Source of the DNA: Takakia lepidozioides
Taxonomy: Eukaryota > Plantae > Bryophyta
Reading direction: 5' to 3'
Length of the DNA: 64,000 nucleotides
NCBI GenBank assembly: GCA_030704615.1
Contig: CM060732.1
Location: 32,798,001-32,862,000 of the forward strand
Shown: positions 40,264 to 64,000 of the stretch, piece after piece
Position numbering within the stretch: the first letter of the stretch is position 1
Layout: each line of letters opens with the position of its first letter
Translations under genes and position numbers: made by a program
The notes under the pieces: generated by a model
What the model saw: only the letters and a program-made list of their open reading frames with translations
Database searches by the model: none
What the model was told of the DNA's origin: nothing

Positions 40264-41055
40264 TAGTAGGTATTGACTGTTGGGAGGCACCTGTAGGGAT
40301 TGTACACAATGCACGTTGTAGTGCTATGCCCCTCATCTTCACCTACACATGCAACCCCGACCACTGGCATCAATAGAGTTCAGTGTGGAGCTCCAACATT
40401 GGCAGCAGCAAGGCCGCCTGCATACACCCATCTGTTAGGAAACTCTCAAGTGTTGCTCATTCGCAGGGAGCAGTGACACCTTTGAAATGTCGACTCCTAC
40501 AGCAATGTATAGTGGTTGTAGTCTCGCAGGGACACATGACATTCATAGTGTTTGTTTCTGCCATGTACAATTGTGGAAGTAGACATTTTTTCCCACAGAT
40601 GGGTTCAAAGTGTATATTGAATTGAGTCACACGGTTTGTAAAAGAACTTAGTGACCTCTGTATTAGACATTTTGAGAAAAATGCACAGAAGAACACCATG
40701 TCAATGGGCAAGTTCTGCCATATCAACTGCTCCTCTATGAATTCCAGAAAGTGTGATGCCCAAGTAAATCTTAGTTAAAAGTCACAAATTTCCACGGTTT
40801 GGGTAGGCTGGGACATGTCCCACTTGATGAAAACTGTATGAAAAGAAACAAGGAGCAAGTAAGTATGAGGAGAAGAAGCCAAGAAGCCAAGATGGATAGA
40901 ATCATATAGTAAGCAGCACGGCAAGAAATTTCTTTTTGTTTTGTTTTGTTTTATTTTCTTTCCCTGTCTGCCACTGAGCTAGGGTTTTGGATAAAAGGAG
41001 CAGAGAGCTCAGTGCCTTCTCTCTCTCTGTGTCGGTGTAAGGTGGTTGAAGCGCG

Positions 41056-42071
41056 ATGGTGTCGCTCAAGCTGCAGAAGCGGCTGGCTGCCAGCGTGCTC
41101 AAGTGCGGGCAGCGGAAGGTATGGCTAGACCCAAATGAGGTGAATGAAATTTCCATGGCCAATTCACGGCAGAACATCAGGAAGCTGGTGAAGGATGGGT
41201 TTGTGATTAGAAAGCCTCAGAAAATTCACTCTCGAGCTCGCGCCCGTCGTGCTTTGGAGGCCAAGCAGAAGGGCCGGCATTCTGGCTATGGCAAGCGGCG
41301 CGGTACCAGGGAGGCTAGGCTTCCAACCAAGGTAGAATTCTTATCCCTTCCTCGTGCGCATGGATGTGGGGTGTGTTTGACTGGTTTTAGGTTTATGATT
41401 GGGTAGACACTGCATCGAAATCAGAGGTTTTATTCATGGTGTATCCTTTCGTTTGTTTTCACCAAGGATGCCTTCTCCGCATTTTTAAGTGGTTGTACAT
41501 CCTGATGCTGTAATTTGGACCTTGAAGTCCACGGGGACTTCGGTTGCCTCACAAGCCGAGCCCCTTCTTCTTTCCTCCTGCAGCTTGTTGTAGCTGTATG
41601 AATCTTCACATGAAGTTATCAATTTCCTAGATTCGGTCCAGGGGTGCCACATGAATTGGGCCTGTCCCACCTATGAGGCTTCCATTGCTAACGCAATCGC
41701 TTCCGTCGGTATTGAAGGTTCTGTGGTTGCGACGCCTGCGTGTCTTGAGACGTCTCCTCCGCAAGTATCGAGAGGCAAAGAAGATTGACAAGCATATGTA
41801 CCACGACATGTACATGAAGGTCAAGGGTAATGTATTCAAGAACAAGCGGGTGCTGATGGAGAGCATCCACAAGTCAAAGGCTGAGAAGGCGCGTGAGAAG
41901 ACTCTCTCTGACCAGTTCGAGGCCCGTCGTGCGAAGAACAAAGCTTCCCGGGGTCGGAAGATTGCCAGGCGAGAGGAGCGATTATCGCAAGGTCTGGTCA
42001 TGGAGACAACACTCGCACCTGAGTCAGATGCCCCCGCTATTCAGGCCCCCCAAAAGAAATCAAAGAAGTGA
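41056..42071 (+). CDS. RPL19: 60S ribosomal protein L19 (eL19)
   Basis: Exons 41056-41331 and 41718-42071: [18 protein letters not shown]...[19 protein letters not shown]|...[19 protein letters not shown]. Confidence 0.98.
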
Positions 42072-43250: not shown

Positions 43251-44929
43251 AGAGGTAGAGAACAATGATGATGTAGGTGTCTCTGAAGACAAAGGAGGCG
43301 TCTTTGTAGAACGCAAAGTAATTACCTGAAGCAAATGCAAAACTTAAACCCTCTTCCCCTTTCACTTCATCAGTGTGTGTAGAATCTGACAACAGTCCTG
43401 TAGGTGTAACATTATACCTGACTAGATCCACAGACATTGTGTTTGAGATGATTTTTAATATGCAACAACCATGCCCTCAGCTACTTCATTTCTATGGAAT
43501 TCCGAGTTTGCATCAATGAAGAAATGGTGTCAGAAATGGTGATGGTGTCATTTCTTGGACACCATCTACAATATCAGCAATGGTACTTCCCCAAGCCTGG
43601 AGGCAGAAGTTATACAATTGAGGAGATGCCCAAATGTGTACACGTCTCAATGCTTAGCTTGACTTATGAAATTACCATTGAGAGTCCAACCATGTTTGCT
43701 GTACAATGTACCTCAAGATGACGGTATGAAGTCCTCATACCTTCAGAACCAGAGAAATGGGTATACATCTTGAATTACAACACTGGCTCTGAAGTACTTG
43801 ACTCCAAGAAAACTAACCCCAACTGAGAATTCTATACGTGACCACAAACACAACTCGATCACAACAGTACAAAAACACCCCCACCTGGTGGACTGGATGG
43901 AATGGTACCACACACTTCAATTGATTTGAAGATCACCCCTAACTTGCTTCTACGAATCTGCATATATATTTGTTTCTATTGCAAATTACATGTACATTGC
44001 AATCAAAGACAGAAAAGACTAGTGTTGGGCTTGTGATGCCCCAAACTTTCCTCATCACAGATTCACCCGTTTCATCCAACACGGCGATACACATTCATCG
44101 TATATTTTTTTGGCGTATAAAGCCGTTAATCCGTTACAATGATGTTTAGGTTAGGGTTAGTTTAGGCTGGTGGCTTGATCTTGGCCCTTTGTTAGATCCA
44201 GGGCTGCAAGGCAGCACCGTGGGCTTGGGCCTATAATGCCTCACCACGCGGCGGGCCACTACGGTTAGGGCTTTTGTATAAAGACGGCGCCCTGACACAA
44301 GGTCAGGGCGGTGTACTCGGGTGTTGTTGTACATGTGATTTGAGTGTACAAGTTTTTGGATGAGAGCTGCTTAGTGTCTGAATCGTGTGTTTGATCCTCC
44401 TCTTGCGCGTTACTTGCTCTTTCCGCTCGCCCCTTTGTTGTGCAAGTTCGCTTCTTGAGAGGAAAGGAGTATATGCTTCAGGCTTGTTTTATGGTGGAGA
44501 GAAGCCGGGTATTCTAGGCGTGGTGGATCCTGCCCGCACTGTCAGGATCAGTTAGGTCATTCGCGGGATTTGCTCTACGTCATGCTGCCTAAGTGGTTCG
44601 CTAATGCGTGTTATCGATGGCGGCTCCTCGCTTTGCCCTCTTTTCTCCTGCTGTTGTGATTTTGTCGTCTCATGATGTGCGTTGGGTGTAATTGAAGGGG
44701 ATAGCTATAGTTCGTGATTTGTCTTGTGTAGCTCGCAGAGAGGGGGAGAGCATGTTCCTTCATATTAGCGTGGCACTTGCCATCGAGGCTGCTTCTAGTG
44801 TAGAGACTGACCCTGCTGCCACTTCTCATTCTGCTAGTGTTGTTGTTGTTGCTCCTCCCGTTGTTTCTAACCCTGTTGACACTCTTGCTGTTACTAACAC
44901 TACTGACGGCACGCGGCCTGGCATTGTTG

Positions 44930-45350
44930 TGTCATGGTTTTAGTCATGGTTATCTAGAATTACCTACTTCTAGTTAACTAGGACATTTTAGATATTTATA
45001 TTTATATTTTGTGTGTTGGGACTTCATTTGGTCTCACATGCCAAGTGAGGTGTCGAGCCTCACTTGAGACATGGAAATAGGTTTTCCCCTTGTGAGTGTT
45101 GAGGAGGCTCATCTTCTTGTAGTTGAGCCTCCATGAGCTTCTCTCACCTCCATAGCTCTAGGTATTGAGAGGGAGTGTGTTGAGGGCTTTGTAGGGTGGA
45201 TTCATTTAGCAAAGGTGCCCTTGGCTTGACTTAGTTTATATGATAGAGTGGATTTCACTTGGAAGGACTAGGGCTTGTTCTTCATGTGATTGCTTCATGC
45301 TTTGAGAGCTTTCATTGTCTTCTACTTCTCTCATTTCTCATCTCTTATCA
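44930..45350 (+). repeat. Terminal repeat A1
   Basis: TGTCATGG...CTCTTATCA, near-identical to 55379-55794 (a few substitutions and two small indels). Confidence 0.95.
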
Positions 45351-45351
45351 A

Positions 45352-45362
45352 TACAAGAAGAT
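45352..45362 (+). promoter_or_regulatory. Putative self-priming primer-binding site
   Basis: TACAAGAAGAT lies 1 nt after A1 and is the exact reverse complement of ATCTTCTTGTA (45111-45121) in A1. No TGG-type tRNA PBS is present. Confidence 0.65.
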
Positions 45363-46650
45363 CACCTTATGCTTGTGAGTGCGGAGTGTAAGGATTAATT
45401 TTGCACTTGTATTTTAAAGAGGTTGAGAGCTAGGAGAATTTAGCTCTTGTAGCACAAGGCTTGCAAGGGGTTGCAAGGAAATGTGCTCGAGTATTGCATG
45501 CACCAAGGAGTTGGAGAGCTTGAGAAGAAAGCTCTTGAGTCACAAGATTTTGCAAGGATTGTAAGGAGGAAGTCTTGTGTGTGTGGAAGCATGGATTCTA
45601 GGGTTTGAGAATCCTTTGTATGCATTATGGAGTCGATGGTGTGCGCCATGGCTTGTGGAGAGTGACTAAAGGCTTGTTAGTGCTCATTTCACTATCAAGC
45701 TAGGGTTAAGCAAGTTCAAAGTGTGGATGTTGTGGAAGAGAAGCCAATGAGCTATATATGCTTGGGCTTGAAGACAACAAGGGCAAGCACTTGGAGAGCA
45801 CTAAGAAACTCAAGAGGTTTTGAAAGGGAGCATGTGAAGAAATCTTCCAATCATGGTGGTGTGGAGCCAAGCTTAGGGTGCCATTGGAAGGGCTTGGAGA
45901 ACATGTGGTGGGAAATCCTTGAAGGGAAATCATCATTCAATGTATGCATAGCTTCACCCTAACTATGTAATGTGACAAGAGGGGGAGGCAATACTTGGCT
46001 ATTCATGCTCTTGGTAGTGCGAGCTTTGTGGTGGATAGTTGACCAAGCAAGTGGTGCATGTGTGGAGCATGCTCGCTTGAGTTTGTAAGTTCAAGTTTGA
46101 GAAGGGGAGCTCTTGAACTAGCAAGAGGTGAAGGCCTTTGAGATCCATTTGTGTGTGAAGTGGAGAGGTGTTGATTCATGTTATGATGAAGGAGAGCAAC
46201 ACATAGGCCAAGAGGTCATGAAACATGCATTCAAATGACCACGGGGAGCACATGGATGATGGATTGGTGCAAGACCCCAAATGAGGCATATGGCGTGAGA
46301 GTGGGATCCAAGGCGGATTGCTTGGGAGCATTATTGTAAGTGACAAGCATTGCTCCTACACATTGAGATAATTTGTGTTGATTTGGAGCAATTGTCAAGT
46401 GATGAGGAGACAAATGCATGATTATTCGGCAATGGAGATATGGTAGTTAAATCCCAAGGACTAGAAGGGGGATTGATTTGGTGGACAATGACTTGCAAGT
46501 TGAGTTGGACCACTCTTGGTTGCACATTGGGGTGGAAGAGAGCAAGAAGATGCCTCTTATGACCACCTAGAGACCATATTTTTGCTTGAGTAGAAGCATA
46601 GAAGTCAAGGACTTGCATTCTAGCTCTTACAAACCCTAGTAGTGTATGCT

Positions 46651-46952
46651 CAGACTATACCTCTGTTAGTATACCAAACAGGAGCTTGTCCCTTTGACTA
46701 TACCTCTGTTGAGGTATCACCATATGTGAACCCTAATGTGAGACTATACCTCTGTTAGTATACCAAACAGGAGCTTGTCCATTTTACTATACCTCTATTG
46801 AGGTATCACCATATGTAAACCCTAATCAGCTCAGACTATACCTCTGTTAGTATACCAAACAGAACCCTCATTTTCAGACTATACCTCTGTAAAGGTATCA
46901 TCAACATAAAGGACCCTAGCAACCTCAGACTATACCTCTGTTAAGGTATCAA
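46651..46952 (+). repeat. Array of seven ACTATACCTCT-core repeats in the element leader
   Basis: Cores at ~46654, 46697, 46743, 46786, 46835, 46878, 46929 (43-51 bp period, alternating spacers). ATACCTC-tgtt-GAGGTAT hairpin in alternate units. Confidence 0.9.
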
Positions 46953-46984
46953 CAGTGAAAGGACTTAGTGAAATTTAAGGGCCT

Positions 46985-47102
46985 TTGGAGGATTGTTTGG
47001 AAGATATTTGAGGGCCCTTGGAGGAGTATTTGGAGGATCTTTGGGGTCCTTGGAGGAGTGTTTGGAGGATCTTTGGGGTCCTTGGAGGACCCTTCAAGGA
47101 GC
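46985..47102 (+). repeat. Short TTGGAGGA-based tandem repeat
   Basis: TTGGAGGA recurs; TTGGAGGATCTTTGGGGTCCTTGGAGGA occurs twice. Confidence 0.8.
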
Positions 47103-47766
47103 TTTGGTGGACAATGTTGAAGAGCTCTTGAAGGATTGATTGAGGGATATTGAAGGATACTTGCCACGGCCATACAAGCGAGTGGATAGAGACAAGAGGG
47201 AGAGTGGTGGGATGAGAGCATTCTGGGGTTAGGAATTGCTTTAGTTTCTCTTCTCCATAGTCTTTCACCCTCTCTGTAGGCCAAAACCTTTCCGTAGGTG
47301 GAGGCAAGAGTCAGTCCGGGTTTGGGCTGGGGTGTCCTTGCAAGAGCGACACTGTGGAGTGTTTTTGGTGTGGGGGAGTTGCTGTCTTGATTTTCTTGTG
47401 TTTGGATCCCCTCCACACCTGCATGCTTGACTGTGCGCCATGTTAGCTTTGTGTGGGCGCATTTTTTCATAGGAGGTTGGTCCGGATTTGATCACCGGCC
47501 AATCCTAGAGTATGTTGTCGGTGGTGAGGCTGGAGTGATGACCAGCAAGACCACCAGTGTTTCTTCTATGGTGAGGCTGGGTTGATGACCAGCAGACCAT
47601 AGGAGTGCTTGCGGTGGATGCAGGTGCAAGTACAGGTCTACATTAGAAACCTATTATTCCTGCTTGAACCAGTAGCCGCAACAGGTTCTTTACCCGGTTA
47701 CCTTGTAGAAAGTGGGGATTAGAGACAGGTTGACAACCGGTTGGGTTGTGAGTTTTCATCACGGAG

Positions 47767-50660
47767 GTGCCACCAGCTGCTGAGGGGAGTGCCGGTACAA
47801 GCACCAGCGATACTAGTGGGTACACAAGACAAGGTGTGCGGTTTAGGCCACTTTCACCTTCAGTGTCTTCTGAGGAAGGTTCAGACTCGGAGTCAGGAGG
47901 ATTCTCGCCGAGGGTGCAAGTCATTTCCGTGCCATTGTTGTGGGACACGATGGAGGAGATGTATGGAGCTACCAAGGGGCCACGTAGGTACTCTGGAGCT
48001 GTGGGCACCATCGAGCTTGATGACTTTATACAAGAGTTTGACAGTTGGTGTGATTTGCAGCAAATGCGCAATCCACAACTGTTTACGCCCTTTATGGCGT
48101 GGAAGGGGCTATTCCAGCACCTTGAGGGGCCGCCCATGGATGATTACCATGAATTTAGGCGGGGACATGCGGTGGAGATTGAGGAGTGGCGAGAGTATTG
48201 GTCACCTAACTATGTCTCAATCACTAGAGGCACAAGGGCAGCGGTGACACCAGCAGCTACACAAACATCTCCAACTACAAGCACTAGTAGTGGAACAAGT
48301 AGTGCTGGCACTTCTGCAGGTGGTACCAGTTCAAAAGGTGCTACTACTCCTCCTGCCACAATTACAACACATGTGCCTAGATTCAACCCGGTGGTGGAGT
48401 TCTTCCAGGAGTTGCGGAGGAACTACCAAGGTGTACGGACAGAGAAGCTGCGAAGTTTGCAAGACTTCCAGCGCAAATCCAGTGAGAGCTTGCGAGAGGC
48501 CTACACTCGTATGAGGCGCTTGATAAGTGTGACCCAAGGGGTTACTGAAGCTCAGGCAGTCCAGTTCTGGTATGGAATTTTGGACAAGGAGCTCAAGAGA
48601 AGGGTGCGGGATGCAACCCTGTTACAAGCGCCCAACCCACATTAGCGGATGTGTTTCTGCTGGCTGAGCGGATTGAGCTCAACATGGTGGAGGAGCGAGT
48701 TGTTACCATTGGATTTGGCAAGGACATGCCTGCACGAGGTGCAGCTGCCAGCCAACAGGTACAAGGGACTGCCCAACAGCGTGGTCAGGGGGGCAAGGTT
48801 GCCCAACCCAAGTTCCATGGAGCTTACAGGGGACCTCAGGTGCAGAGGCCCGTGGCATCTTTTGCAGGCCAACAACAACTAGGGGTGATATGTTGGACAT
48901 GTGGAGGACCCCATGTCAAGAGAGATTGCCCAGAGAGTGGCAGAAGGCCGGCACAAGCACAGCCTGCACAGTTGCAGTGTGGGCATTGTGGCAAGTATGG
49001 GCATGGAGATGCCCAGTGTTATGACTTGCACCCTGAGTTGCGCCCAGGCCAGTTCCAGGGGAACAATGGTGGCCGGGGGCGAGGTGGACCAGCCCAGAGA
49101 GGACGAGGTACAGGCCAAGGGCAAGCTCAACATGGCCAAGGACGCGGAGGTCAGGGTGTTGACCAAGACATGGCCAACCGGCTTCAGCAGCTAGAGCAGA
49201 GGCTCGCTGCCATGGCTACAGCTCAGGTGGTACCGGCTCCCAGGCGGGATGGTCCACCTCCTGCTCCTAAGGGAGGAGATATGGGAGGCATGGGATTCAT
49301 GTGCGGAGCAGCACTACCACTAGTGCAGGTGGAGTCTGCTACAGCCGTGACTCGAGGAGCAGCACGAGTTCCTGAGCCACAAGGTGCAGAGGTGGAATTG
49401 GATCCACAGCGTGGGGAGGCAAGCCGTCAGGCGAGGCTTCCTCAGTCATTCATATTGGCGGAGACAGTGTCGACGCCATCCATGGCACCTAGTTCTCGCC
49501 CGACTGTTACCGAGGCGGAGGTTACTATGTCATTGGGGAGAGCTACACGTGCAGCACTGACACCTGCTACCAAGGCTAGTGCAGCCGGTGTGTTATTAGG
49601 GGCAGCCACCTCTGTGTGTCAAGCCCCACTGTTCTCAGCAACCATGATTGTGACGCCAGGGGTAAGACCAGCTGCAGTGTTCAGACTAGCAGCAACACTC
49701 TGCGAGAGTGGGGAGGTCACTTCATCTTCTGCGGAGTTACTGGAAGGTGTAGTGGCAGAGGGATCCTCGGATTTGAGGGTCAAGACTGCCACGGCTGCGC
49801 CATGGCAAGCTGCAGTTGCCAGGTTGACGGAGCTGCCAGCTAGGCCAGCCTTTGAGTGCGCCATGGTGACACCTGGAGTTGTCTTGTTAGACAACCAGGG
49901 AGGCATTTTCACTTTGAGTGGACCGGCAGGCAAGAAGTATCGGCCACTGCGGGTCTTGTTGGACTCAGGAGCTCAGCCACTGATGTTGGGCAGAGCTGCT
50001 ATTGCAGGTTTGGGCCTCATGGAGGCGGATATGGAGCCTTGTCCTTTCCAGATACAGACATCTCTGGGAGGATCAGAGCAGGCTCGGGGCATGACACGGC
50101 GTGAGTTGGTCATTGGACTACAACCAGATCATCATGTAGATGGCTCAGTGATGCGAGCCAAGGCCATTGTGACAGACGCGGTCTCTTACGATGTCCTTGT
50201 TGGTGGGGCAGTGTTATATCCCATGGGCTTCACCCTGGACTTTTGGGAGGAGTCAGCATCCTACAGGCCTGGATGGCAGTCAGGGGATGGTCGTCGTGCA
50301 CAGCTCCTTGTGACATTCATTGGGGGTATTGCGGCTGCCCAGCGAGGCAAGCTGCCAACACTAGCCGCCTTTACAACTGCAGTTAGTTGGCCTGGAGAGT
50401 TGCTGGAAGGCAATGCCCATGCAGAGGATGTGCCACCTCCAGCAGAGCAGGATGACATGCATGGTACGGCGGAGTTGCCTGCCATGGTTGCTCACACTCC
50501 ATTATGGGGTACGAGCAAGGATTTGCAGCAGGCTGCTGATGGACGGGTACAACAAGCCTGGGTAGAGGCCTTCGTACCGTCAGGAGAAGAGGAGAGTGCG
50601 GTGATTGCACTAGGACCACCTCAGTTGTCGCCATTGGACACCACACCTGTGTGGCAGTGC
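47767..50660 (+). CDS. Gag (two CCHC knuckles) and aspartic protease of the DNMT-Gypsy; frameshift ~48645
   Basis: Gag core, CWTCGGPHVKRDC, CGHCGKYGHGDAQC, RGG-rich linker, LLDSGAQ (~49956-49976), YDVLVGG. Confidence 0.9.
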
Positions 50661-50664
50661 CCGG

Positions 50665-51620
50665 ATGAAGGCATATGCCTTCTGGACTTGTTTGGCGGGA
50701 TCAGCACTGGATTGGCTGCAGTACTGCAGGCAGGTGTACGAGTTCGACGTTACCTGTATGTGGAGAGGGATGAGACTGCACGACGCGTCTCACTGCGCCA
50801 TGTTGCTCAGTTGGTACAGCAGTACCCTGATTTTTGCCAGTGTCTGCAGTTCGTGGATACCAACAAGCCTTGCCAGCAGACATTTGTTGTTGGGGGCGCA
50901 GGATTTGGAGCGGGTTGGCTCCATTGATCTGGTAGTGGCAGGTTGGCCCTGCCAAGGGCATTCATCAGCCGGGCATGGCAATGGATTGCGAGACTCGAGG
51001 ACGGGTCTGTTTTGGGAGATGGTGCGGATTTTGCGCCACTTGCAGCTTCATCAAGTTGTATCTCTAGCATACATCTTGGAGAATGTGCCACTGATGGGTG
51101 ATTCTCGGGCCAGGGTGATGGCCAGTGTGCATCAAGTCCGGTCGTGGCTTGGGTCAGCAGTGTTGCTGGATGCAGCTGCAGTGGGGTCATGGGCTCATCG
51201 TCCACGGCTATGGTGGACTAACTTGATGCCACCCGCACTGCTCAAGCGTGCATTTGATGGGGTGCAGCGGCCAGCACACCTCAGTGGATAGCATTTTGGA
51301 CACAGGAGGCAGTCTCAACGTGTGAGACACGATGACCGTTCGCCTTTGGCAGTGGTCAACAGGGTGGTCAACCACGAGCAGCATACCTACACTGCTCAGC
51401 TTCCCAGGATCCCATGCTTTTCGGGATGGTGGACCTGGCCTCTTGTGGGATAGCCAATTGCAACAATTAGTGGAGCCCAATGCTGACGAGCGCGAGCGGG
51501 CGATGGGTTTTACCACAGGTACCACGGCGGTGCCATCTCTTTCTGAGGCATCACGTCGTCAGGTGTTGGGGCAAGCAATGGATCTCAATTGCTTGACCTG
51601 GATTATCAGCTTGGCTATGG
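50665..51620 (+). CDS. C5-cytosine DNA methyltransferase domain (DNMT3-like) inside pol; frameshifted in this copy
   Basis: Motif I LLDLFGGISTG (50679), motif II YVERD, motif IV AGWPCQGHS (50938-50964), motif VI YILENV (51070-51087), motif VIII AHRPRLWWTNL (51193-51225), motif IX ERERAMGF (~51488), motif X RRQVLGQAM (51554-51580). Confidence 0.92.
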
Positions 51621-52039
51621 CTGAGCAGCGCAGAGTACGGAGTACACTTCCCTTCATGGTCTCCCTGCCTACCGAGACGGTACAGGCAGCGAGTTGGGGC
51701 GAGCAGGTGAGGACCACGAGGTGCAGGCCGCATCCATGGCAACGTGGGAGGTGCTCGAGGTTCAGAAGGAGTTGGCAGCCAAGGCGGCGGTGATGGATCA
51801 GGTTGGGGATTTTTCTCGGATTGAGAGAGGTCCTCAAGGATGGGATGATGGGCAGGATGAGACATTGTCACTGACAGAGGAGGCAGTGGTCACTGCTCAA
51901 GAGGTTGCAGCATAGCAACACGGGACGCGTCTTCTACCTCTAAGCTGCTGGACTCAAGGTTGCAGTCACGGAGGACAACTGGGAGCCTGATGTTGGACCT
52001 ATAGTCACCGGAGGAGAGAGACGACGTATACGGCGGTTC

Positions 52040-53400
52040 TTGAGGGCTTACAGGAACTGCTTTGCCTTCAGTTTGAAGGACTTAGGAGCACTGAAGGGTC
52101 AAGAGATTCGCATTGAATTGGCTACTGACACGCCAATCTTTCGGAGACCCTATAGATACAGTGACATGGAGAGGTCCTTGATTCAGATGAGAACTCAGGA
52201 CCTTTGGGAGGCTGGTTGGTGGAGCTATCTGGGGGAGAGTATGCTTCAGCCACAGTGATGCCAGCCAAGAAGGATGTCTTTGGCAATTGGACGGAGAGAG
52301 ACGTATGTGCGGTGATTACCGGCCTGTAAATCGTCAGACCAAGTCCGATAGGTATGCCATGCCAACACCAGAGGAGATCTTTGATGCCATTGGCATGCCA
52401 AGGTCTTTAGCACGTTGGATTTACGATCCGGATATCACCAGTTGCCGATCAAGGAGGCGGATAAGCAAAAGACGGCATTCTGGGGATCAATGAGCACGGA
52501 AGGATTAGGATTGCCTATACCAGTGGCGGTTCTTACCATTTGGGCTTAAGAACGCTCCGGCAGAGTTTCAGAGAGTCATGGACAGGATTCTAGCAGGGGG
52601 GAGTTTGCTCGGTGCTACATAGATGACATCATCATCTTTAGTGCTACGGTGGATGGTGGAAGGCATGAGAGACACCTTCAGGGGAGTTTGAGCGCTTGAG
52701 GGCGCACGGATTGAAGTTACATGGGGAAGTGCAAGTTTTCCACAACCAGATTGAGTATCTGGGTCACATGATATATCCTGGAGATTGGGGGTACAGCAGA
52801 CTAAGGTAGAGTCCATTGCACAGGTTCCACGCCCCACGGATGTGAGCCGAGTTCGAGCTTTCATGGGGTTAGCAAACTATTATAGACGGTTTGTTAAGGG
52901 ATTTAGTGCCATTGCAAAGGCTCTAACCAAGCTGACCAAGGTGGACCAGGAGTGGCAGTGGGAAGATGAGCAAGAACAAGCTTTTCAAGAGCTCAAGGCG
53001 AGGTTGACCTCGGCGCCCATCTTGAGACGACCTATCAGGGGGCGTCCTTTTCAGTGCATACAGATTGGAGCATGCTGGATGGGGCTTGGAGCGGTGCTCA
53101 CACAGGTGATGATGAGGAAGAGAGTTCGTAGTGGCTTATGCTAGCCGCCGAACAACGTTGCAGAGTCTAAGTATAGCTCATATGAGGAATGAATAGCTTA
53201 GCTGCAGTGTGGGCCGTGGCACACTTCAGGTGCTATCTATACGGCAATCTCTTCACCCTTGTCACGGATCACCAACCACTCAAGTGGTTGATGAGTCAGA
53301 CAAGCTTACGGGGAAGCTTGCACGGTGGCACTCATCCTTCAAAAGTATGACTTTCAGGTGGTGCATCGAACGGGTTTGGTCAATCGCAATGCAGATGGTT
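52040..53400 (+). CDS. Reverse transcriptase and RNase H of the DNMT-Gypsy (many frameshifts)
   Basis: RMCGDYRPVN, LDLRSGYHQL, LPFGLKNAP, YIDDIIIF (~52616), FMGLANYYRRFVKGFS, TDHQPL, GKLARW. Confidence 0.9.
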
Positions 53401-53689
53401 GAGTCGCAATCCATGCACAAGCCAGCAGGATGACACTGGAGCTCGGTGGCATGGTGAGACGGACGAGGAGATGGGGCCCAGATGGCATGGCATCTGCATT
53501 TTCGTGTATCTTGGCAGCGGAAGACCAGGTTGGACCTTGCAATAGGGATGACTGTAGATCAAGTGTCTGAGGACCCTGAGGCAGCAATGAGAAGGGGGCG
53601 CCAAAGATATTTCATGAGGATTCAGTTGTGTTGGACTACCCCGCACTGGAGACACTGCAGCCAGTGTGACTGCCAAGGAGAGGGATCGA

Positions 53690-55034
53690 TCCTACAACGA
53701 GCCAAGAGGTTCAAAGGGGGAGGGGACACACTGCTCCGAGTGTGGGAGGATGGTCGAGTGAGGATTGTGCCTCACCCAACACGTGGCATGCCCATGAGGA
53801 GTTGGGGCATTTTGGGGTGCGACGCACTCATAGTCTACTGCAGGGGCAGTATTGGTGGCGTGGTATGCACACAGAGGTGCAACAATTTGTGGCTAGGTGC
53901 ATGGTGTGTGACAGGGTGCGTGCTTCATTCAACGCCCCTACTCCACAATTGCACCCTCTTCCGATCATGGGATTGGGCTACAGGTGGAGTCTTGACTTTG
54001 CAGGGCCGTTGCCACTGACCATGTACCACAACAAGTACGTGTTGGTGATGGTGGAGCACTTCTCCAAGTGGATTGAATTGGTTCCATTGCCTGATAAGGC
54101 TAGTGAGGGAGCTGCGTATGCATTCTTGGATTGTGTGCTTAGCTGATTCGGTGCTCCAGCTGAGGTACTCACGGACCAAGGGAGAGAGTTCTTGGGGGAG
54201 TTTCAGGCTTTGTGTGACAAGGCCTTGATAGACCACCGCACCACTTCTCGGGATCATCCTGAGGCCGATGGCTTGGCAGAGAGAGTTGTTCAGACAGTAA
54301 AGAGGGGTTTGCGCAAGTATGGTTTGCAGAAGGGACACCTAGGAGATTGGGACCTTCAGTTACCCTGGTTAGCCATGGGCTACAGGTTCAGCAAGCAAGC
54401 ATCACTTGCCTCCTTCTCACCATACTTTCTTCTCTTTGGCCGAGAGCCGGATTTGCCTACATCCATTCGCAGAGAAGTTGCTACCGTTCTTAACCTTGAC
54501 GATCCAGACGTGTGGGCACATGCATGTGAGCAGCGTGCAGAGTTGTTCAAGAAAGTCATGCCCATGGCTTTCGAGAACCTTGCCATTGCACAAAATCGTG
54601 ATACGTTGAGGTATGCTACCATACGTGGTGGGGGCTATCATCCTGGGGTTCGGAGATTCAACCCTGGTGACTATGTTTATCTGCAGCAGACTGCTCCTAC
54701 GACCTTGGATGTGACTGCAGGACGTACTATTTTGAGGGTTCGAGAGGTTTTGCCCTCGGGAGTCATGATCTTGGAGGGTCGGGATGGCATGATTTGGAAG
54801 GACCATGTGCGTAATTGCGCGCCATGTCACCTTCCAAATATTGATGGAAGGGTTGACCCAAACCTGGCAGTGGTACCTGCAAGTTTGAGGTGCATGTTGT
54901 GTGGGTCTGCTAGAGGGGCAGCCACCATGCTGGTGTGTGATCAATGCTCTAGAGGTTGGCATATGAGATGCTTGACTCCACCTCTTGAGATGGTTCTTGA
55001 TGGGGATTGGTTATGTCCGCATTGCATTGGATAG
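53690..55034 (+). CDS. DDE integrase with C-terminal PHD finger
   Basis: HHCC (HEELGHFG...CMVC), SLDFAGP, LTDQG.EF, DGLAER. PHD CMLC...MLVCDQCSRGWHMRCLTPPL...GDWLCPHC (54890-55027). In-frame TGA at ~54144. Confidence 0.93.
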
Positions 55035-55291
55035 TGAGAGTGGATACAACCATGGAAGGCTAACAAGAAATGCAAGGCCAAGCTACTAGGAGACCAACAC
55101 ACGAGATCCTGACTCAAGTTCACAGATTGCAAGACGGCAAGTAATGATGGGGTTGCTCTTGTACCCGGCCTCTTGGTCTATAGAGTTTGAGTACAATAGG
55201 GACAGTGATAGAGGACTTAGTACGGCTGTGGCTATTACATCTTGTAGCTATCTGGAGTTAGAGGGACCTAACCACCAGCTAGGGGGGCGAT

Positions 55292-55376
55292 TGTGGTATA
55301 GCTTTCTAGGATTGTGTGCTTAGATTGTGTGGTGGACAGCGATGTATGTTGTGGCATGATGCTTAAGTGCACGACA
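55292..55376 (+). repeat. Terminal repeat B1
   Basis: TGTGGTATAG...GCACGACA, 85 bp, directly after the PPT; 2 mismatches to B2. Confidence 0.95.
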
Positions 55377-55378
55377 GT

Positions 55379-55794
55379 TGTTATGGTTTTAGTCATGGTT
55401 ATCTAGAATTACCTACTTCTTAACTATGACATTTTAGATATTTATATTTATATTTTGTGTGTTGGGACTTCATTTGGTCTCACATGCCAAGTGAGGTGTC
55501 GAGCCTCACTTGAGACATGGAGATAGGTTTTCCCCTTGTGAGTGTTGAGGAGGCTCATCTTCTTGTAGTTGAGCCTCCATGAGCTTCTCTCACCTCCATA
55601 GCTCTAGGTATTGAGAGGGAGTGTGTTGAGGGCTTTGTAGGGTGGATTCATTTAGCAAAGGTGCTCTTGGCTTGACTTAGTTTGTGATAGAGTGGATTTC
55701 ACTTGGAAGGACTAGGGCTTGTTCTTCATGTGATTGCTTCATGCTTTGAGAGCTTTCATTGTCTTCTACTTCTCTCATTTCTCATCTCTTATCA
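55379..55794 (+). repeat. Terminal repeat A2
   Basis: TGTTATGG...CTCTTATCA, copy of A1. Confidence 0.95.
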
Positions 55795-55795
55795 T

Positions 55796-55880
55796 TGTGG
55801 TATAGCTTTCTAGGATTGTGTGCTTAGATTGTGTGGTGGACAGCGATGTATGTTGTGGCACGATGCTTAGGTGCACGACA
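55796..55880 (+). repeat. Terminal repeat B2
   Basis: Copy of B1, followed by the TSD GTTG. Confidence 0.95.
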
Positions 55881-58800
55881 GTTGCCTTGCCAGCATCGCC
55901 TCTTCCTGAGCCTGCTGCTTGCGTTCCAGCCCTTGTTGTTTCATTGGGTTCTCCTGGTGGTAGTGATTATGATAATCTGGGGGAGGTAGAGGCGTGGTCG
56001 CCAAGGTTTGAGAGGTCTGACAGCTCTCTAGATAGTTGTGACCCGGACTACTACAACTTTGACAATTTTGTGGATCCAGGCCCTGAATATTTTGAAAGTA
56101 GGCAGCAAGCAGCAAAATTAGAAAGAGACATTGAATTGTTGCAGGAAATAGATGATCTGTTGTGTGAAGTATGTGACGAAGATCAGCTTTGGTTTGAGCG
56201 TGTAGAGAGAGTTGTTGTAGGTGATCTTGCTGCACTAACCAGTCATCACGAGGCCCTGTTCACACGACCTTTGCTTGAGCCTGGTGCGGTGATCTCCAGG
56301 GCCAGACAGCTTGCTAAGCGAGAATTTGAGCTACGCACTGAAGAGCGTCTACCGTCCAAGGCGACCAAGTCGCGTTTTCTAAACCATCGTGAATTAACCT
56401 GGTTGGAAGTTGGCTTGTATCTGCCTCTTTCTGGTGTTCGAAGTGCAGAGCTTCATCATGGCCTTGGCGTGGTAGGGAGAAGTTGGTTGTCGTTGATGTT
56501 ACAAGGCATAGGGGCTTTGATCTTTACGGTTTCAGCTCCGGCCTTGCGCCTTGGCACCTACCTATTCACAGTTAATTGATGGTCTGACGGATGGGGCCTT
56601 GATAGTACAGTCGTCTGATCTAGTGGTCTTGGGTGTGGGCACTGCCTTTGCTTCACAGTAGGCTCACCCGAGCGCGTTTGAGAGACTGAGTGATTGTTCA
56701 AACTCGACTGTGCTTTCGCGCACCTGGAGAGAGGGTGACACCACCCGCGTTGGCTTTTGGCTTAAAGGAGCTGATGGTTGGGAGTGGCTGGCATTGGGGA
56801 TCTACGAGTTAGAATCACACAAGGTGCTGAGGGTGGTGTATTGCTCCACTTGGGTTCCAGAAGACAGCTCGCCAAGTACTTGGCCCACGCTCCACATCCC
56901 TGCGGCTTGAAGGTTATGCCTCCAATCCAACCTTGTTTCTTGCATGCTAGGTGATTCTAGTACCACTTGGTTGAGATCTGGAAGACAGAGGTCCATGCAT
57001 AATTCAGGAAAACCGCTGGTCGAAAGTATAGTAGAGGTGAATGAGGAATCGGACAACCTGCAGGCAGGTAATTTCATGGTGAGTGATGATGAATTTTGAA
57101 TGTTGGGACAATGGGGGCAGTTGTGGAGTCCCCAACTGATATTCCATTAGTTGATGAGGTGTCTGGGATAGCCACCCTCGAGGGCCTTTCTGTCTATGAT
57201 CGGCGTGATGAGGACTTGGAGACTAGACGGACTGAGCCCATGCTGGCTCGGGAATTACACATTCTGCCCTCCCATCCTCCTCATGGGGATCGAAGGGTCT
57301 GGTTCGGATGTATGGGCTACTACGAGCAGTATGCTGGCCCAGGTTGCTAACTTGAGTCTTAGGATGCTGCCTGTTGTGAATTTCCCTAGTCCCACTCTCG
57401 GGGGAGGGAACTTGTTGCCCGTGAATTCGGGTATGAATGTGAGCAGTCTTCCTGTGTTGAACGTGCATGGTGTTGTTCAAGGTGGGGGTGTCATGATGCA
57501 AGGGCCCTCTAGTATGTCTGCTACTCTGCCTCCTGCCATAGCTGGTCAATCTGTGGGGGCTCTCCCTGCTACACGGGCTGGGGTGCCACCACATCTTGTC
57601 TCTAGCCAGTCCATAGATATGCATGCTAGCAATATCCCTCTTAGCAGTATCCGATCTGTGTCAACACAGCCGGTGGGAGTGGCATCCACTCTTCCCATGA
57701 GCGGCATGCCACAAACCCACTTGCAGTCTACTAACCCTGCTGCTCAGCCAAGTGTGGCAATACCTGCTCTTCCCATGGGCACGGTGGCGCCACGTCTGTC
57801 AGCCTCAACTGCTATAAGATCAGTTAGTAATAATAATGTGTGTGGTAATTCTGCATCTAATGTTGGATATGTGCATGGTAATGCTGCTCCCATAATTCCT
57901 TGTTGCCCTGCTCATGGATCTGTCCTCCCTGGTCATATCAACCATAGCCTACCTTGTCATCTAATCCACCAGCTGACCACTCAACCTTACCCAAAATATA
58001 CAATGGGAGAAGACTTTGATAGATATCTTCAGATGTTTGAGGTCATTGCTAGTGTGAATGGGGTTCCTGAGAATTTCAAGATGGCAATCTTTAGGATGAG
58101 TATGAAGGGACCAGCTCGGGACTTACTGCATGCAGCCGTGATGGATGATCCCAGCCTCAACTGGGCAACTCTGGTGGAATGGGCAAAGACCTTGTTCAAA
58201 CCTCCTAAGAGGCCTCTGGATTGCTTTACCAAGCTTTCGGCCAGGACTTACCAACCTGGGGAATCCTTGTGGAAATATTACATGGATCTTAAGTTTGCTG
58301 CTGTTGAAAACATCATAGACTCGGTAGAGAGGGATCGTATGGTTAAAAGGTATTTTCTCCTTGGGTTGCCTTCCACTATTCAGAATTGGGCTCAGCAGCG
58401 TCATTTTGTTGATGACGAGACTATGTTAGCAGAAATTAATGTTAAAATGGCAGACTTGGCTGACGTCAAATCAATGCACCATCGTGCCAAGTTTCAAGCT
58501 CCGGTGGGCTCAGAGCTTGGCATGTCTGCAACATCCTCACCCTATGCTCCTCCTAAGACATGTAAGGCTGATGATTTTACTCTTCAGGGGTTGGCTAATA
58601 CTGTGGGAAGTCTTAGTGAGTCTGTGGCCACTCAGTTTGCTGCCATGCAGACTCATCAACAAAGATGGCAGCCTCGCCACAACCAAGGAACAACAGGAGA
58701 TAACAATAGGGGTCGAACCCAGACTGGGCAAGCCTATGAGTGCAATCGTGCTGCCTATTACATTTGTGGGTCTTTTGAACACTAGACGAAGCATTGTCCA

Positions 58801-59569
58801 GACATAGCAGGGCTACCAGAGCTGATCAAGAACAAGAAAACAGCCAATGTCTCTTCCCCTCCTTTAAACTAGCACGATCTCTTGGGAAGGGGGCAAGAGG
58901 TCCATCATCTACCAACCCTGTTTCTTCTGTTCCGATTCAAACTGTTCTATCTACTAACATCAAAGGTTTGCATTGTCCTCTCAGTAGGCAGACTGTTGGC
59001 CAGCAGATCAGTCCCCTCATGGCGCAGTGCCATATCCATGAGCTCAGCTTTCCCTGTGTGGTTGATACTGGATGCACTATATCTGCCATACCTTTGAGTG
59101 TTGTGAGAGTTCTTGGTCTCAAACTATGCCCTGCCACAGGTATTGAGGTGTTTGTTGCAGATGGATCCAGGTATGAGCCCTTAGGACTAGTCACTATTCC
59201 CATCAGAATTCATAAAAAGGAGGTTGTGGTTACTTGTATAGTCACCATTGGAGATCAATTCCTTCTAGGCCTTCACTGGATGACCAGAGTTGGTGCCACC
59301 ATTAGCTAGCTGACTACTCCCTTCACTTTAACAATGGAGAAGGGCATGAAGTAGTGGTTCCCTTGAAAGCAATGAAGATCAAGGCTGGGTCTGCTACAGC
59401 CAATCTGTCCAGAGTCCAAGCCCTGGTAAAGGAGGTATAGCAGAACTCTCACTCCAATCTCAATTGGAATGATTTCTACAAGTTTCAGCCTGATCTTCAA
59501 CTCTTATATCAGTGGCATGTTCCTGGTGCTAAGGAAAGAACAAGGGTGCCCATAGCTATTCCAAAGAAT

Positions 59570-59880
59570 TCTACTCTAATTCGTGCACCTCTCAACATCA
59601 CCATCCCTGCCTTGACCCAAAGGGTGGTCAAGTCTAGTCTGGCTTTCTTGTGTCCCGCTGCTCATTTCCTAGAAATTGAGGGTTGGAGGAGATTGACTGC
59701 TCTTAAGCACTGCCTGGTGGCCACTGGTGTTCTTGATAGAGGATATAGACAGGAGGTTAAGATCCTGATTGCTAATCCTGAACGCTTCCCTGTGACTATT
59801 AAAAAGGGGCAGGTTTTGGCTCGCATCACTGCTCTTCCCATTGCAGACATACAAGAGGTGCATGCTGGTTTTGGTCTTGA
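59570..59880 (+). CDS. dUTPase-like domain between protease and RT of the host Gypsy
   Basis: ITIPALTQRVVKSSLA...P...LEIEGWRRLTALKHCLVATGVLDRGYRQEVKILIAN...TIKKGQVLARI...AGFG aligns by eye to trimeric dUTPase motifs 3 (GVID.DYRGE), 4 (GDRIAQ) and 5 (GFG). Confidence 0.7.
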
Positions 59881-61230
59881 GGCCATTGGCATCCAACATG
59901 GCCCCTTAGATGTAGTTGTTGCCTTTGCTGCAGTTGCACCACCACCTGTTCCTAATCTCAGCCTGGGAGGTAAGAAGGCCCTCACCAAAGTTTTATCTGA
60001 AATCAAGTTAGGCACAACTCTCTCCTCTAGACAAAGGAGGAAGGTGGAAGTGCTTATTGCAAAGAATCTAGATATTTTCAGTTTGGGATCCACTGACCTA
60101 GGGCGCACTCCTATTCTTCAATATGACATTGTCACTGAAGGGGCTCCTATTAAACAATTTGCTTACCGAGAGAGTGTCAAGGAACGTGCCATAATCCAGG
60201 AAGAAGTCCAGAAGATGCTTGATGCTGGTGTGATTAAACCTTCAGTCTCTCCTTGGGCTAGTCCAATTGTCCTAGTTGGAAAGAAAGATGGCACAACCCG
60301 CTTCTGTGTTGACTTCTGAAAGTTGAATGACATCACAAAAAAGGATGCCTACTCTCTACCCAGGATTAATGAGACCTTGGATCAACTACATGGTGCTACA
60401 ATTTTCTCCTCTCTTGATCTTGCATCTGGCTTTTGGCAAGTTCATCTTACTGAAGCAGCCAAGGAAAATACCTCTTTTGTGTGTCGTATGGGTAAGTGCC
60501 AATATGAGACCATGTCTTTTGGTTTGTGCAATGCCACCTCTACTTTCCAACGCCTCATGGACATTGTCTTGGGCAATCTTCGCTGGGAGTGTGCTTTAAT
60601 TTATGTTGATGATATCAATGTTTACTCAGCCAGCTTTGATGCTCACTTAGCTGATCTGCAGCGTGTCTTCAGCAAATTGCGCACTGCAGGCCTTAAAGTG
60701 AAGCCCAAGAAATGTGAACTATTCATGCCTGAGCTCCACTTCCTTGGCCATGTTCTGTCCAAAGATGGTTTGCTTCCTGATCCTGCCAAGCTTGAGTCTG
60801 TTTGGGGCTTTCCTATCCCCAGGGATAAACATTGTATTAAATCCTTCCTTGGTCTGGCCTCTTATTACCGGCGCTTCATAAAGAACTTTGCTAAGCTTGC
60901 TCACCCTCTGACCAAGATGTTGTGCAAAGATGCCAGGTTTGAATGGACCTTCTCCCAACAGGCTGCTTTTGACACCCTTCGCAAGGCCTTGTGTTCAGCT
61001 CCCATCATGATGTTTTCCAACTTTGAGTTACATTTCTTGCTTCAGACTGATGCATCTAATGTTGCCATCTTTGCGATCTTATGTCAAGTTGTAGAAGGCA
61101 AGGAGCATGTCATAGCTTATGCATCCCGTCGTCTAGATCGTCATGAAAGGAATTATTTCATATCTGATAAGGAGGGTCTAGCCCTGGTCTTTGGTGTGAA
61201 GCATTTTCGGCAATATTTGCATGGTAACCG

Positions 61231-64000
61231 TGTCGTGCGCATACATATCGCTACACAACTACATCGCTGTCCAAAATCACACAACACATGTGCACACCAC
61301 ACACTAGTATACCACTACTCCACCACTAGTCCAGACACTAGTCCAACCACTAGGCTACAACTAGTCAGTCACTAGGCTGCCACTATGCTGCCCACTATGG
61401 CAGTCACTAGTCCACACAATGATAAAGAAGAAGAATACAAGCACGAGCTCACAAATTTGAAGCATAAACTCATGCATATATAACCTCATCACTCAAATAC
61501 AAGTCAAGCCAAGTGCACCCCACGCCATGGGGAATCCACACTACGGCGCCATAGCTAGGCGCGGTGAGGCTCAACTCGAGAAAGATGAGCCTCCCGCGCT
61601 TGCCGTGAAGATAACCACTCCAGGGCCTAAATCTGCTTTGACCCCTGGATTGACACTTGGGCCAATCCCAAATGTCAATATGTAAAAGCTAGCTATTTCC
61701 TAGCTAGTTTCACACTAGTGGTAAAATAACTCGACAGCTGTCGTGCGCATACATATCGCTACACAACTACATCGATGTCCAAAACCACACAACACATGTG
61801 CACACCACACACTAGTATACCACTAGTCCACCACTAGTCCAGCCACTAGTCCAACCACTAGGCTACAACTAGTCAGTCACTAGGCTGCCACTATGCTGCC
61901 CACTATGGCAGTCACTAGTCCACACAATCGCCCCCCTAGCTGGTGCTTAGGTCCCTCTAAGTCCAGGTAGCCACAAGATGTGATAGTGACCATAGCCTCA
62001 CTAAGTCCTCCACCACTATCCCTACTACACTCAAACTCGATAGATCAAGAGGCCGGGTGCAAGAGTTGCCCCATCGTTAGTCGCCGTCTTGCAACCTGTG
62101 AACTTGAGCTTGGGATCTCATGTATTGACTCCTATGAGCTTGGCCTCCCATGTCTTGTTAGCTGCCTCCAGTCATGTCCACTGCCACTATCCCAAGCAGT
62201 GTGGACACAACCAATCTCCGTCAGGAACCTTCTCAAGAGGTGGTGTCAAGCATCCCATATGCCAACCCCTTGAGCATCGATCACACACCAGCATGGTGGC
62301 TGCCTTTGGCAGACCCACAGAGCATGCACCTCAAACCTGCAGGTACCACTGCCAAGTTTAGGGTCAACTCTGCCATCGACATTGGGAAGGTGACATGGCG
62401 CACAATTACGCACATGGTCCTTCCAAGTCATGCCATCCCGACCCTCCAAGATCAGGACCCCTGAGGGCAACACCTCTCGAACCCTCAGAATAACACGCCC
62501 TGCAGTAACATCCAGAGTCATAAGAGCAGTCTGCTGCAAATAAACATAGTCACCAGGGCTAAACCTCCGAACCCCAGGACGATATCCTCTACCACGTATA
62601 GTGGCATACCTCAACGTATCACGGTGCTGTGCAATGGCAAGGTTCTCAAAAGCCATGGGCATGACTTTCTTGAACAACTCTGCACGCTGATCACATGCAC
62701 GTACCCACACGTCCGGATCGTCAAGGTTAAGGACTTGAGCAGTGTCCCTACGAATGGCTGCAGGCAAATCCGGCTCTCGGCCAAAGAGAAGGAAATATGG
62801 TGAGAAGGAGGCAAGTGATGCTTGTTTGCTGAACCTGTAGCCCATGACTAACCAAGGAACCTGAAGATCCCAATCTCCTAGGTGTCCCTTTTGCAAGCCA
62901 TACTTGCGCAAATCCCTCTTCACCGTCTGAACAACTCTCTCTGCTAAGCCATCAGCCTCAGGATGATCCCGAGAAGTGGTGCGGTGGTCTATCAAGGCTT
63001 TATCACACAAAGCCTGAAACTCCCCCAAGAACTCTCTCCCTTGGTCCGTGAGTACCTCAGCTGGAGCACCAAATCGGCTAAGCACACGATCCAAGAATGC
63101 ATACGCAGCCCCCTCACTAGCCTTGTCAGGCAATGGAACCAACTCAATCCACTTGGAGAAGTGCTCCACCATCACCAACACATATCTATGGTGGCGCATA
63201 GTCAGTGGCAACGGTCCTGCAAAGTCAAGACTCCACCTGTAGCCCAATCCCATGATTGGTAAAACATGCAACTGTGGTGTAGGGGTGTTGAATGAAGCAC
63301 ACACCCTGTCACACACCATGCACCTAGCCACGAACTGTTGCACCTCTGTATGCATACCACGCCACCAATACTGCCCTTGCAATAAACTGTGAGTGCGTCG
63401 CACTCCAAAATGCCCCAACTCCTCATGGGCATGCCGCACTAACCGTGCACGCTGTGTGGGGTGAGGCACAATCCTCACCCGACCATCCTCCCACACTCGA
63501 AGTAGGTGTATCCCCTCCCACTTGAACCTCTTGGCTCGTTGCAAGATCCGATCCCTCTCCCTGGCAGTCACAGTGGCTGTCGTGTCTCCCGTGCGGAGGT
63601 AGTCCAACACAGCCGAATCCTCATGTATATCTCTGGCACCACCTGGCTCATCACTAGCCTCAGGGTCCTCAGACATTCCATCTACAGTCATCCCTGTTGT
63701 AGGTCCAACCTGACCTCCCGATGCCAAGATACACAAAAATGCAGATGCGTGCCATCCCGACACCATCTCCTCGTCCGTCTCACCATGCCACCGAGCTCCA
63801 GTGTCATCCTGCTGGCTCATGCATGGATTGCACTCAATCCATCCGCATCCCGATTGACCAAACCCGGTCGATGCACAACCTGAAAGTCATACTCCTGGAG
63901 TATGAGTGCCCACCGTGCAAGCTTCTCCGTAAGCTTGTCTGACAACCACTTGAGTGGTTGGTGATCCGTGACAAAGGTGAAAAGATTGCCGTATAGATAG
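61231..64000 (-). mobile_element. Second, diverged member of the DNMT-Gypsy family (3' part: RNase H end, integrase, PHD, PPT, B1-A2-B2); continues beyond the window
   Basis: ORF 63820-62246 is highly similar to 53400-54900. PHD ~62335-62200 (frameshifted). PPT at 61941-61927. B1 61926-61739 and B2 61418-61231 (188 bp each); A2 61736-61420. Confidence 0.93.

Follow-up and report, generated by a model that had tools for sequence, protein, structure and literature searches.

The results described below indicate that a bryophyte family of Gypsy-type retrotransposons keeps a DNMT3-like C5 cytosine methyltransferase (DNMT) as the last domain of its Gag–protease (PR) frame, and that this enzyme probably methylates the newly made DNA of the element. 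The family was met in a 64,000-nt stretch of the Takakia lepidozioides genome (hereafter the window; all coordinates count from its position 1), which holds one whole element and the 3' part of a second copy. Capture of a methyltransferase by a Gypsy element is known from a 2018 report, which describes it, in the part of the text accessible to us, as a capture in one alga, the activity of the enzyme not being demonstrated (PMC5890265). What is added here is the range of such elements over land plants and chlorophytes, the placement of the enzyme at the level of Gag with a conserved stop codon, and a repeat anatomy resembling that of a re-cut circle.

Layout of the element

The element (Table 1) shows the order gag–PR–reverse transcriptase (RT)–RNase H (RH)–DDE integrase (IN), a polypurine tract, TG...CA ends and a target duplication, as in Ty3/Gypsy elements, and the empty-site joint 44925–55881 is present in runs X1 and X9 (X-numbers denote sequencing runs searched as contigs, L-numbers loci from a metagenome scan, and P-numbers protein records). 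Two complete, identical terminal LTRs and a tRNA primer site were sought in the element and not found, its layout being A-coding-B-A-B. The DIRS/Ngaro/PAT traits, namely a tyrosine recombinase and the lack of a target duplication, were likewise absent from it, the element having a DDE integrase and 4-bp duplications. Nested insertion as the origin of the repeats is excluded by the single target duplication spanning A1 to B2, and is also contradicted by the recurrence of the layout in the second window copy, L010, L019, L024 and L035.

The element is a broken, dead copy of the family, with breaks in gag, DNMT, RT and RNase H and a premature stop in the integrase; its gag is 67% identical to the N-terminus of the Marchantia protein P0015. 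The frame breaks may have come from decay or from assembly error. Homopolymer sequencing errors as their source found no support, as comparison with the second copy gave nine one-base losses, of which one lies in a run of at least three, and six in the other direction.

Table 1 Features of the two family copies in the window
Feature	Position	Strand	Evidence or remark
Whole Gypsy-type element, A-coding-B-A-B, ends TGTC...GACA, 10.95 kb	44930–55880	+	repeats, empty-site joint
Target duplication GTTG, 4 bp	44926–44929 (left copy), 55881–55884 (right copy)	+	sequence; joint letters fit both sides
Repeat A1	44930–45350	+	against A2: 5 substitutions, 5 gap columns
Site in A1 complementary to primer-binding site	45111–45121	+	putative RNA 5' end and self-primer
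Primer-binding site, directly 3' of A1, without initial TGG	45352–45362	+	11/11 complementary to 45111–45121
Long 5' non-coding region (2.6-kb leader)	45363–47949	+	short tandem repeats within, 46638–46952
gag, two zinc knuckles and spacer	47950–49940	+	PF03732 E 9e-4 (below cut-off); frame break near 48640
Aspartic protease	49941–50306	+	LLDSG 49956–49970; PF13975 E 0.009 (below cut-off)
DNMT3-like C5 cytosine methyltransferase, motifs I, IV, VI, VIII, IX, X	50665–51640	+	broken here
Conserved TAG then CAA, end of Gag–PR–DNMT	51913–51918	+	candidate readthrough signal
Reverse transcriptase and RNase H	51950–53400	+	many frame breaks
DDE integrase and zinc-binding domain	53790–54860	+	D, D, E kept; single premature stop 54144–54146
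PHD finger, end of integrase frame	54891–55025	+	PF00628 E 1.7e-10
Polypurine tract, directly 5' of B1	55281–55290	+	sequence
Repeat B1	55292–55376	+	against B2: 2 substitutions
B1–A2 junction: right end, 2 bases, left end	55373–55382	+	candidate integrase cut site
Repeat A2	55379–55794	+	match to A1
One-base A2–B2 joint, then repeat B2 (55796–55880)	55795–55880	+	match to B1
Second family copy, 3' part: integrase, PHD, polypurine tract, B'1, intact palindrome, A'2, B'2	61231–64000	-	repeats

In the second copy, B'1 occupies 61926–61739 and B'2 61418–61231 of the minus strand, the DNMT region lying outside the window. The 3' parts of the two copies are about 88% alike, and their A and B repeats are very different (the B repeat is 188 bases long in the second copy against 85 in the whole element) with identical end motifs; the summed depth of X1 contigs over the 5' non-coding region is about one-tenth of that over the coding region. 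Repeats and leader seem to change more quickly than the genes do. The tandem repeats of the leader share the motif CTATACCTCTG. Both copies were inserted into an older Gypsy element (about 44200–44925 and 55885–61230), which carries gag, protease, a dUTPase (59441–60319, PF00692 E 8e-9) and RT–RNase H. Elsewhere in the window lies a host gene for chloroplast fructose-1,6-bisphosphatase (FBPase) at 32280–34892, downstream of an array of 76–89-base repeats at 31651–32258; a second host frame, at 41050–42071, is presumably that of ribosomal protein L19. One FBPase exon shares 86–87% identity with moss, liverwort and fern proteins, against mostly 78–85% with those of angiosperms, and falls among mosses in a tree with moderate support (91/81), which points to a host among seed-free land plants, likely a moss.

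Relatives of the family

With the middle DNMT piece as query, 38 homologs were found among 1155 candidates, assigned by record name to Marchantia (12), Calypogeia (four), Sphagnum (two) and Haematococcus (one), the remaining 19 carrying no species name. The metagenome scan gave 43 loci, or 33 groups once near-identical loci are merged; most resemble a Sphagnum protein at 65–92% identity, and a second family comprises L001 and L040–L043. The domain is present in family copies from three bryophyte genera as well as in the metagenome loci, and is not the one-off capture that the earlier note had named as a refuting outcome. The family profile retrieved 213 long proteins (120 of them listed) and, at E up to 1e-30, 628 clusters. 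Neither a vascular-plant nor a Klebsormidium name occurs among the matches listed (38 and 120 rows), most of which carry no species name. In run X1, the summed contig depth is comparable over DNMT bins (0.89–0.91 million) and over gag and RT (0.63–0.87 million), values that indicate relative presence only.

Two architectures were distinguished among the 124 records of at least 1100 residues. RT or RNase H precedes the DNMT in 94, whereas 18 end after the DNMT; in six the DNMT runs on into RT, and in another six it is followed by integrase without RT. The 94 records represent a large sister group (P0036–P0038, P0171–P0270), in which the DNMT sits after RNase H and before integrase and the open frames are often long; it has named members in Haematococcus, Scenedesmus and Monoraphidium, and many of its records have ECQ instead of PCQ. 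DNMT and PHD finger co-occur in both architectures. Among the 18 records ending after the DNMT, two are partial, P0176 stops inside the block preceding RT (pre-RT block), and P0179 groups with the other architecture. Trees of the DNMT (49 chosen rows) and of RT (31 chosen rows), both built by FastTree only, split the two architectures alike and have several subgroups in common. This congruence suggests that the DNMT has long been inherited with the element, its position having changed at least once, unless there were two captures from a close source. The DNMT of the short locus L036 branches just outside the bryophyte group.

The methyltransferase domain

All six C5-methyltransferase motifs that had been reported, unpermuted, between the protease and RT of a delimited element were located, spread over three frames: motif I (LDLFGG, 50682–50699) in frame 3; motifs IV (GWPCQG, 50941–50958), VI (ILENV, 51073–51087) and VIII (AHRPR, 51193–51207) in frame 1; and motifs IX (ERERAMGF, 51488–51511) and X (LGQAMD, 51566–51583) in frame 2, all upstream of the RT motif MCGDYR (52305–52322). 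Relative to P0015, which is uninterrupted, the domain is broken near 50825, 50890, 51285 and 51365–51385, and its four pieces are 64–79% identical to that protein. The statement that the N-terminal part is in frame with gag–protease holds as far as motif I shares the protease ORF 48549–50927, but the gag N-terminus (47950–48640) lies in another frame. The proposed search with PF00145 gave a match to the frame-1 piece (E 1.2e-12; score 48.4 bits, cut-off 22).

Regarding the class of the enzyme, profile, structure search and fold all put DNMT3 first, in agreement with the earlier assignment to a DNMT3-like type unlike plant DRM. DNMT3A is the top hit of P0015 among solved structures (E 1.7e-8), and a profile of 11 relatives scores 84 bits with DNMT3A and up to 75 with DNMT3B, compared with 36 for a DRM-type enzyme, 35 for HaeIII, 33 for HhaI and 27 for DRM2. 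The structure predicted for the DNMT of L001, a natural uninterrupted copy (pLDDT 87.6), matches only DNMT3A, B or C among the folds listed, at best with E 6e-20, a TM score of 0.71 and about 21% identity. Sequence profile and modeled fold place the domain nearer DNMT3 than DRM, DNMT2 or bacterial enzymes; the class was set by these two means, the trees having taken family members alone.

The cysteine pattern of motif IV is kept in 122 of the 124 long records, and in the family protein alignment motifs VI and VIII never vary in their E, N and R residues. An ENV-like motif VI was recognized by pattern in only 30 of the 43 loci. The domain is uninterrupted in L001 (3252–4238); most loci have premature stops within it. 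The DNMT of the window copy was compared with those of L001, L005 and L011 over 260–266 codons (70–71% identity, pN 0.17–0.20, pS 0.74–0.82), and L001 against L005 and L011 gave dN/dS of 0.16–0.17. Between lineages, the DNMT is 65–71% identical at saturated synonymous sites; in the same pairs, protease (50–59%) and spacer (40–48%) are less conserved than the DNMT, and RT and integrase (71–78%) slightly more. Between-family dN/dS, where computable, is 0.10–0.17. For close pairs, the DNMT ratio rises to 0.93 (L005–L011) and 0.43 (L001–L041, whose RT gives 0.15). The substitution pattern points to purifying selection on the DNMT between lineages; the close-pair ratios, as expected, fit dead copies and give no evidence of current use. 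The suggested check for neutral evolution thus came out in two parts, with constraint between lineages but weak or none in close pairs. It is very probable that the family encodes a conserved, catalytic DNMT.

As a trace of self-methylation, the CpG observed/expected ratio was inspected and is not reduced in the element (0.41–0.56) relative to the remaining window sequence (0.43) or the neighboring element (0.32); neither CpG nor CHG content gives a sign of self-methylation in the element.

A conserved stop codon ahead of the reverse transcriptase

Whereas the methyltransferase had been described as lying inside pol, a conserved in-frame stop parts Gag–PR–DNMT from RT–RH–IN–PHD. A stop followed by CAA stands exactly 16 codons upstream of the pre-RT block in 30 of the 31 loci that reach this block (25 distinct groups), as TAG in 22 and TAA in eight; the remaining locus, L038, has TAG then TAA, and a sense codon occupies the stop position in none. 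DNMT and RT are in one frame in 25 of these loci. At the corresponding TAG-CAA of the window copy (51913–51918), four sequencing runs contain no substitution at a frequency of at least 3%, and an indel lies directly behind, because of which the second codon of a readthrough signal is unreadable from this copy. Decay of CAG to TAG as the origin of the junction stop is ruled out by the lack of a sense codon in the 31 loci and of a substitution row in the four runs. The Marchantia proteins P0013 and P0015 and Calypogeia P0005 terminate roughly equally far past the DNMT. Three of the six records running on into RT are Marchantia gene models; one model, P0006, likely skips the stop, because the linker is missing from it. 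In P0033, P0174 and P0177, which are deeper relatives, the DNMT reads into RT with no separating stop.

CAR-YYA following a stop is the readthrough signal of tobacco mosaic virus, according to the accessible text of PMC2194720. It is matched fully by three of the 31 loci (L001, L041 and L042), and 26 have CAA-CCC and then ATG. Whether the ribosome reads through or re-initiates, the DNMT belongs to the Gag frame.

Primer site and terminal repeats

The primer-binding site of the window copy pairs with the site in A1 over all of its 11 bases, as do only 7 of 5000 random window positions. In L006, L008 and L010 the pairing extends over 16 of 16 bases with letters differing from those of the window, and in L004, L005 and L020 over 9–10 bases; at least nine paired bases at the expected site were found in only six of 15 left ends, the other nine falling short or matching elsewhere. 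The self-complementary primer site has thus been kept through sequence change, in two families with different letters. RNA folds contain the A1/primer-site helix in both families, with a stability no better than that of shuffled sequences for the window copy (z -0.9) and z -2.9 for L010. From this complementarity, it is highly probable that the element self-primes without a tRNA. Tf1 of fission yeast also self-primes, its primer site being complementary to about 11 bases of its own repeat, but, unlike the window family, it has ordinary LTRs and no methyltransferase.

A primer site after A1 and a polypurine tract before B1 imply an LTR equal to B-junction-A. The B1–A2 junction is a palindrome, GACA-GC-TGTC, in the second window copy, L005, L010 and L019, its halves being the two ends of the element; the whole window element has the same palindrome with two C-to-T changes. 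Where this palindrome is altered (window 55373–55382, L024 10495, L035 7719), a CAG/CTG site carries a C-to-T or G-to-A change, the kind that CHG methylation followed by deamination would leave. The A2–B2 joint is variable, consisting of one base, two bases, a 22-base filler in L024, or a remnant of the start of the primer site in L004. Duplications of 4 bp flank all five insertions for which both ends were seen. Two loci, L016 and L023, stop after one B; since L023 has its flank in common with L035, it represents a normal copy that was collapsed or recombined.

Discussion

The window family is a relative of the KnitGypsy-Dnmt3 kind and not an independent land-plant invention, the two having been compared by description. 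KnitGypsy-Dnmt3 of the alga Klebsormidium nitens combines Gypsy domains with DIRS-like repeats and is regarded as a capture in the Klebsormidium lineage (de Mendoza 2018, PMC5890265; statements on this work refer to the accessible part of its text). Both have the Gypsy domains together with a DNMT3-like domain that is intronless and unpermuted, A-coding-B-A-B repeats, and purifying selection on the DNMT (PMC5890265). They differ in host, a land plant here and an alga there, and in that the DNMT shares the ORF of RT in KnitGypsy-Dnmt3, according to the paper and its review file, whereas a conserved stop separates the two in the window family; self-priming, a palindromic junction and a PHD finger are not mentioned in the accessible text of that paper (PMC5890265). 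SymbioDIRS-Dnmt3 of Symbiodinium, for which de novo CG methylation has been shown in yeast, likewise has a DNMT3-type domain in an A-B-A-B retrotransposon, but is a dinoflagellate tyrosine-recombinase element regarded by its authors as an independent capture (PMC5890265). The EpiLTRs of Cymbomonas and Euglena likewise combine a cytosine methyltransferase and a chromatin reader within an LTR element, but theirs is a DNMT4-related enzyme accompanied by Dam and a chromodomain; the preprint, in its accessible part, sets them apart from 'streptophyte Gypsy-DNMT3' and mentions no example in a land plant (10.64898/2026.05.21.726589). Among cellular enzymes, PpDNMT3b of Physcomitrium performs de novo CG and CHH methylation (Yaari et al. 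2019, accessible text of PMC6453930); it belongs to the same unpermuted DNMT3 class in a moss, likened here by description, but is a host gene.

In the searched literature, which lacked most subscription papers, no description of a land-plant or chlorophyte Gypsy-DNMT3 was found, in keeping with the remark in the earlier note that no characterised land-plant case was known; nor was the chlorophyte sister group described there. Within the same literature, six Marchantia gene identifiers are unmentioned and KnitGypsy is named in no paper beyond de Mendoza 2018, and the accessible parts of 10.1101/835561 and PMC13069868 contain nothing on the window family.

In the predicted mechanism, the stop followed by CAA would be read through at low frequency, whereby the DNMT would be made at the level of Gag, well above RT and integrase, and packaged in the particle. 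The RNA would start inside A1, and its first 11–16 bases would anneal to the site that follows A1, thereby starting reverse transcription with no tRNA involved. Ordinary LTR-type reverse transcription would then yield a linear DNA in which B-junction-A is the actual LTR. The two ends of this molecule would join, A2 to B2, and integrase would cut the palindrome before A1, leaving CA ends and 2-base overhangs, for insertion of the permuted molecule. An integrase cut at a palindromic 2-LTR circle junction has been reported for foamy virus, at the end-to-end junction (Delelis et al. 2005, accessible text of PMC1180852), whereas in the window family it is proposed at a palindrome inside the LTR, with a permuted insertion. 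Finally, the packaged DNMT would methylate the new DNA, most likely in CG and CHH contexts, as guessed from the moss DNMT3b (PMC6453930) and SymbioDIRS-Dnmt3 (PMC5890265), so that the element would arrive pre-marked.

The steps of this mechanism are not equally secure. The conserved position and context of the stop argue with good probability for readthrough, its main rival being synthesis of RT–integrase by re-initiation, splicing or from a second RNA, a distinctly less probable course that would leave the DNMT coupled to Gag all the same. Re-initiation is suggested by the ATG two codons past the stop in the Sphagnum-like family, and a similar in-frame stop in Tca2 gave no measurable readthrough in baker's yeast (accessible text of PMC2194720). 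However, the window copy, L001, L041 and L042 have no ATG past the stop and yet keep CAA and the frame, the latter three with exact CAR-YYA, and readthrough is considered the likeliest reading. As to the replication route, the variation of the A2–B2 joint, like that of a circle junction, makes integration of a re-cut circle the somewhat favored interpretation, though the joint of L004 could alternatively be a deletion product. The other permutation, which two palindromes per circle should produce, was not seen among 12 distinct left ends including that of the window; the model gives no explanation for this, and collapse of short reads could hide it. The repeat layout is identical to that of Ngaro, PAT and TOC1, in which full-length RNA is copied into a circle, and de Mendoza 2018 calls the KnitGypsy repeats DIRS-like (PMC5890265), but such a non-canonical route is unlikely for an element that lacks a tyrosine recombinase, has a DDE integrase and 4-bp duplications, keeps the polypurine tract adjoining B1 and the primer site adjoining A1 as for an LTR of B-junction-A, and has a variable A2–B2 joint with a primer-site remnant in L004.

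For the role of the enzyme, the cDNA may be the nearest target, because production at the level of Gag would put plenty of DNMT into the particle in which the cDNA forms; the chance that cDNA is the main target is put at about even. A smaller probability falls on host chromatin, where the DNMT might act at insertion sites or on other copies, perhaps guided by the PHD finger, limiting the activity of its own family. DNMT and PHD finger occur together in both architectures, and the closest solved relatives of the finger include those of KDM5B, ATXR5, PHF21A and UHRF1. Such fingers read unmodified H3 tails, like the ADD domain of host DNMT3. In bryophytes, however, the two domains lie on opposite sides of the stop, and the insertion of both window copies in one older retroelement, though suggestive, involves too few events to show targeting. 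Still less probable is a structural DNMT with little or no methylation activity, binding nucleic acid or shielding the middle palindrome from integrase. The Klebsormidium enzyme had no activity in yeast, a result inconclusive to its authors (PMC5890265), many chlorophyte copies have ECQ and ENT for PCQ and ENV, and the element lacks a CpG signature; set against these are the near-universal motif IV cysteine pattern (122/124) and the invariant E, N and R residues. A single capture of a host DNMT3 that is now under neutral decay in the window copy deserves almost no credence: this copy is broken and close dead pairs have dN/dS near 1, but the same DNMT position recurs in liverwort, peat-moss and other elements, identity to solved DNMT3 is about 21% against 64–79% to Marchantia element proteins, and the RT and DNMT trees are congruent. 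It is refuted by the relatives in other bryophytes, the 43-locus scan and the between-lineage constraint. Methylation of the element's own new DNA remains the preferred reading.

We speculate, tentatively and beyond the separate parts, that an ancient green-plant Gypsy lineage extending from chlorophytes to mosses and liverworts has inherited a single DNMT3 module, which in bryophytes a leaky stop turned into a capsid-level enzyme, in an element that would prime itself and whose DDE integrase would insert the circle after re-cutting it at an inner palindrome, its own methylation possibly choosing between the two palindromes.

Several consequences follow. Family loci inflate the counts of DNA methyltransferases in bryophyte annotations, and A-B-A-B elements would be missed or misdated by tools expecting two equal LTRs. 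The anatomy of the repeats gives one explicit path along which an integrase element may come to resemble a DIRS element, and the conserved stop predicts a high dose of the enzyme in the particle. Some gene models of Marchantia, Mp4g09160 among them, contain the entire Gag–PR–DNMT frame; should the family prove common in liverworts, mosses and chlorophytes, this genus would allow a test of why a silencing enzyme is retained by a transposon.
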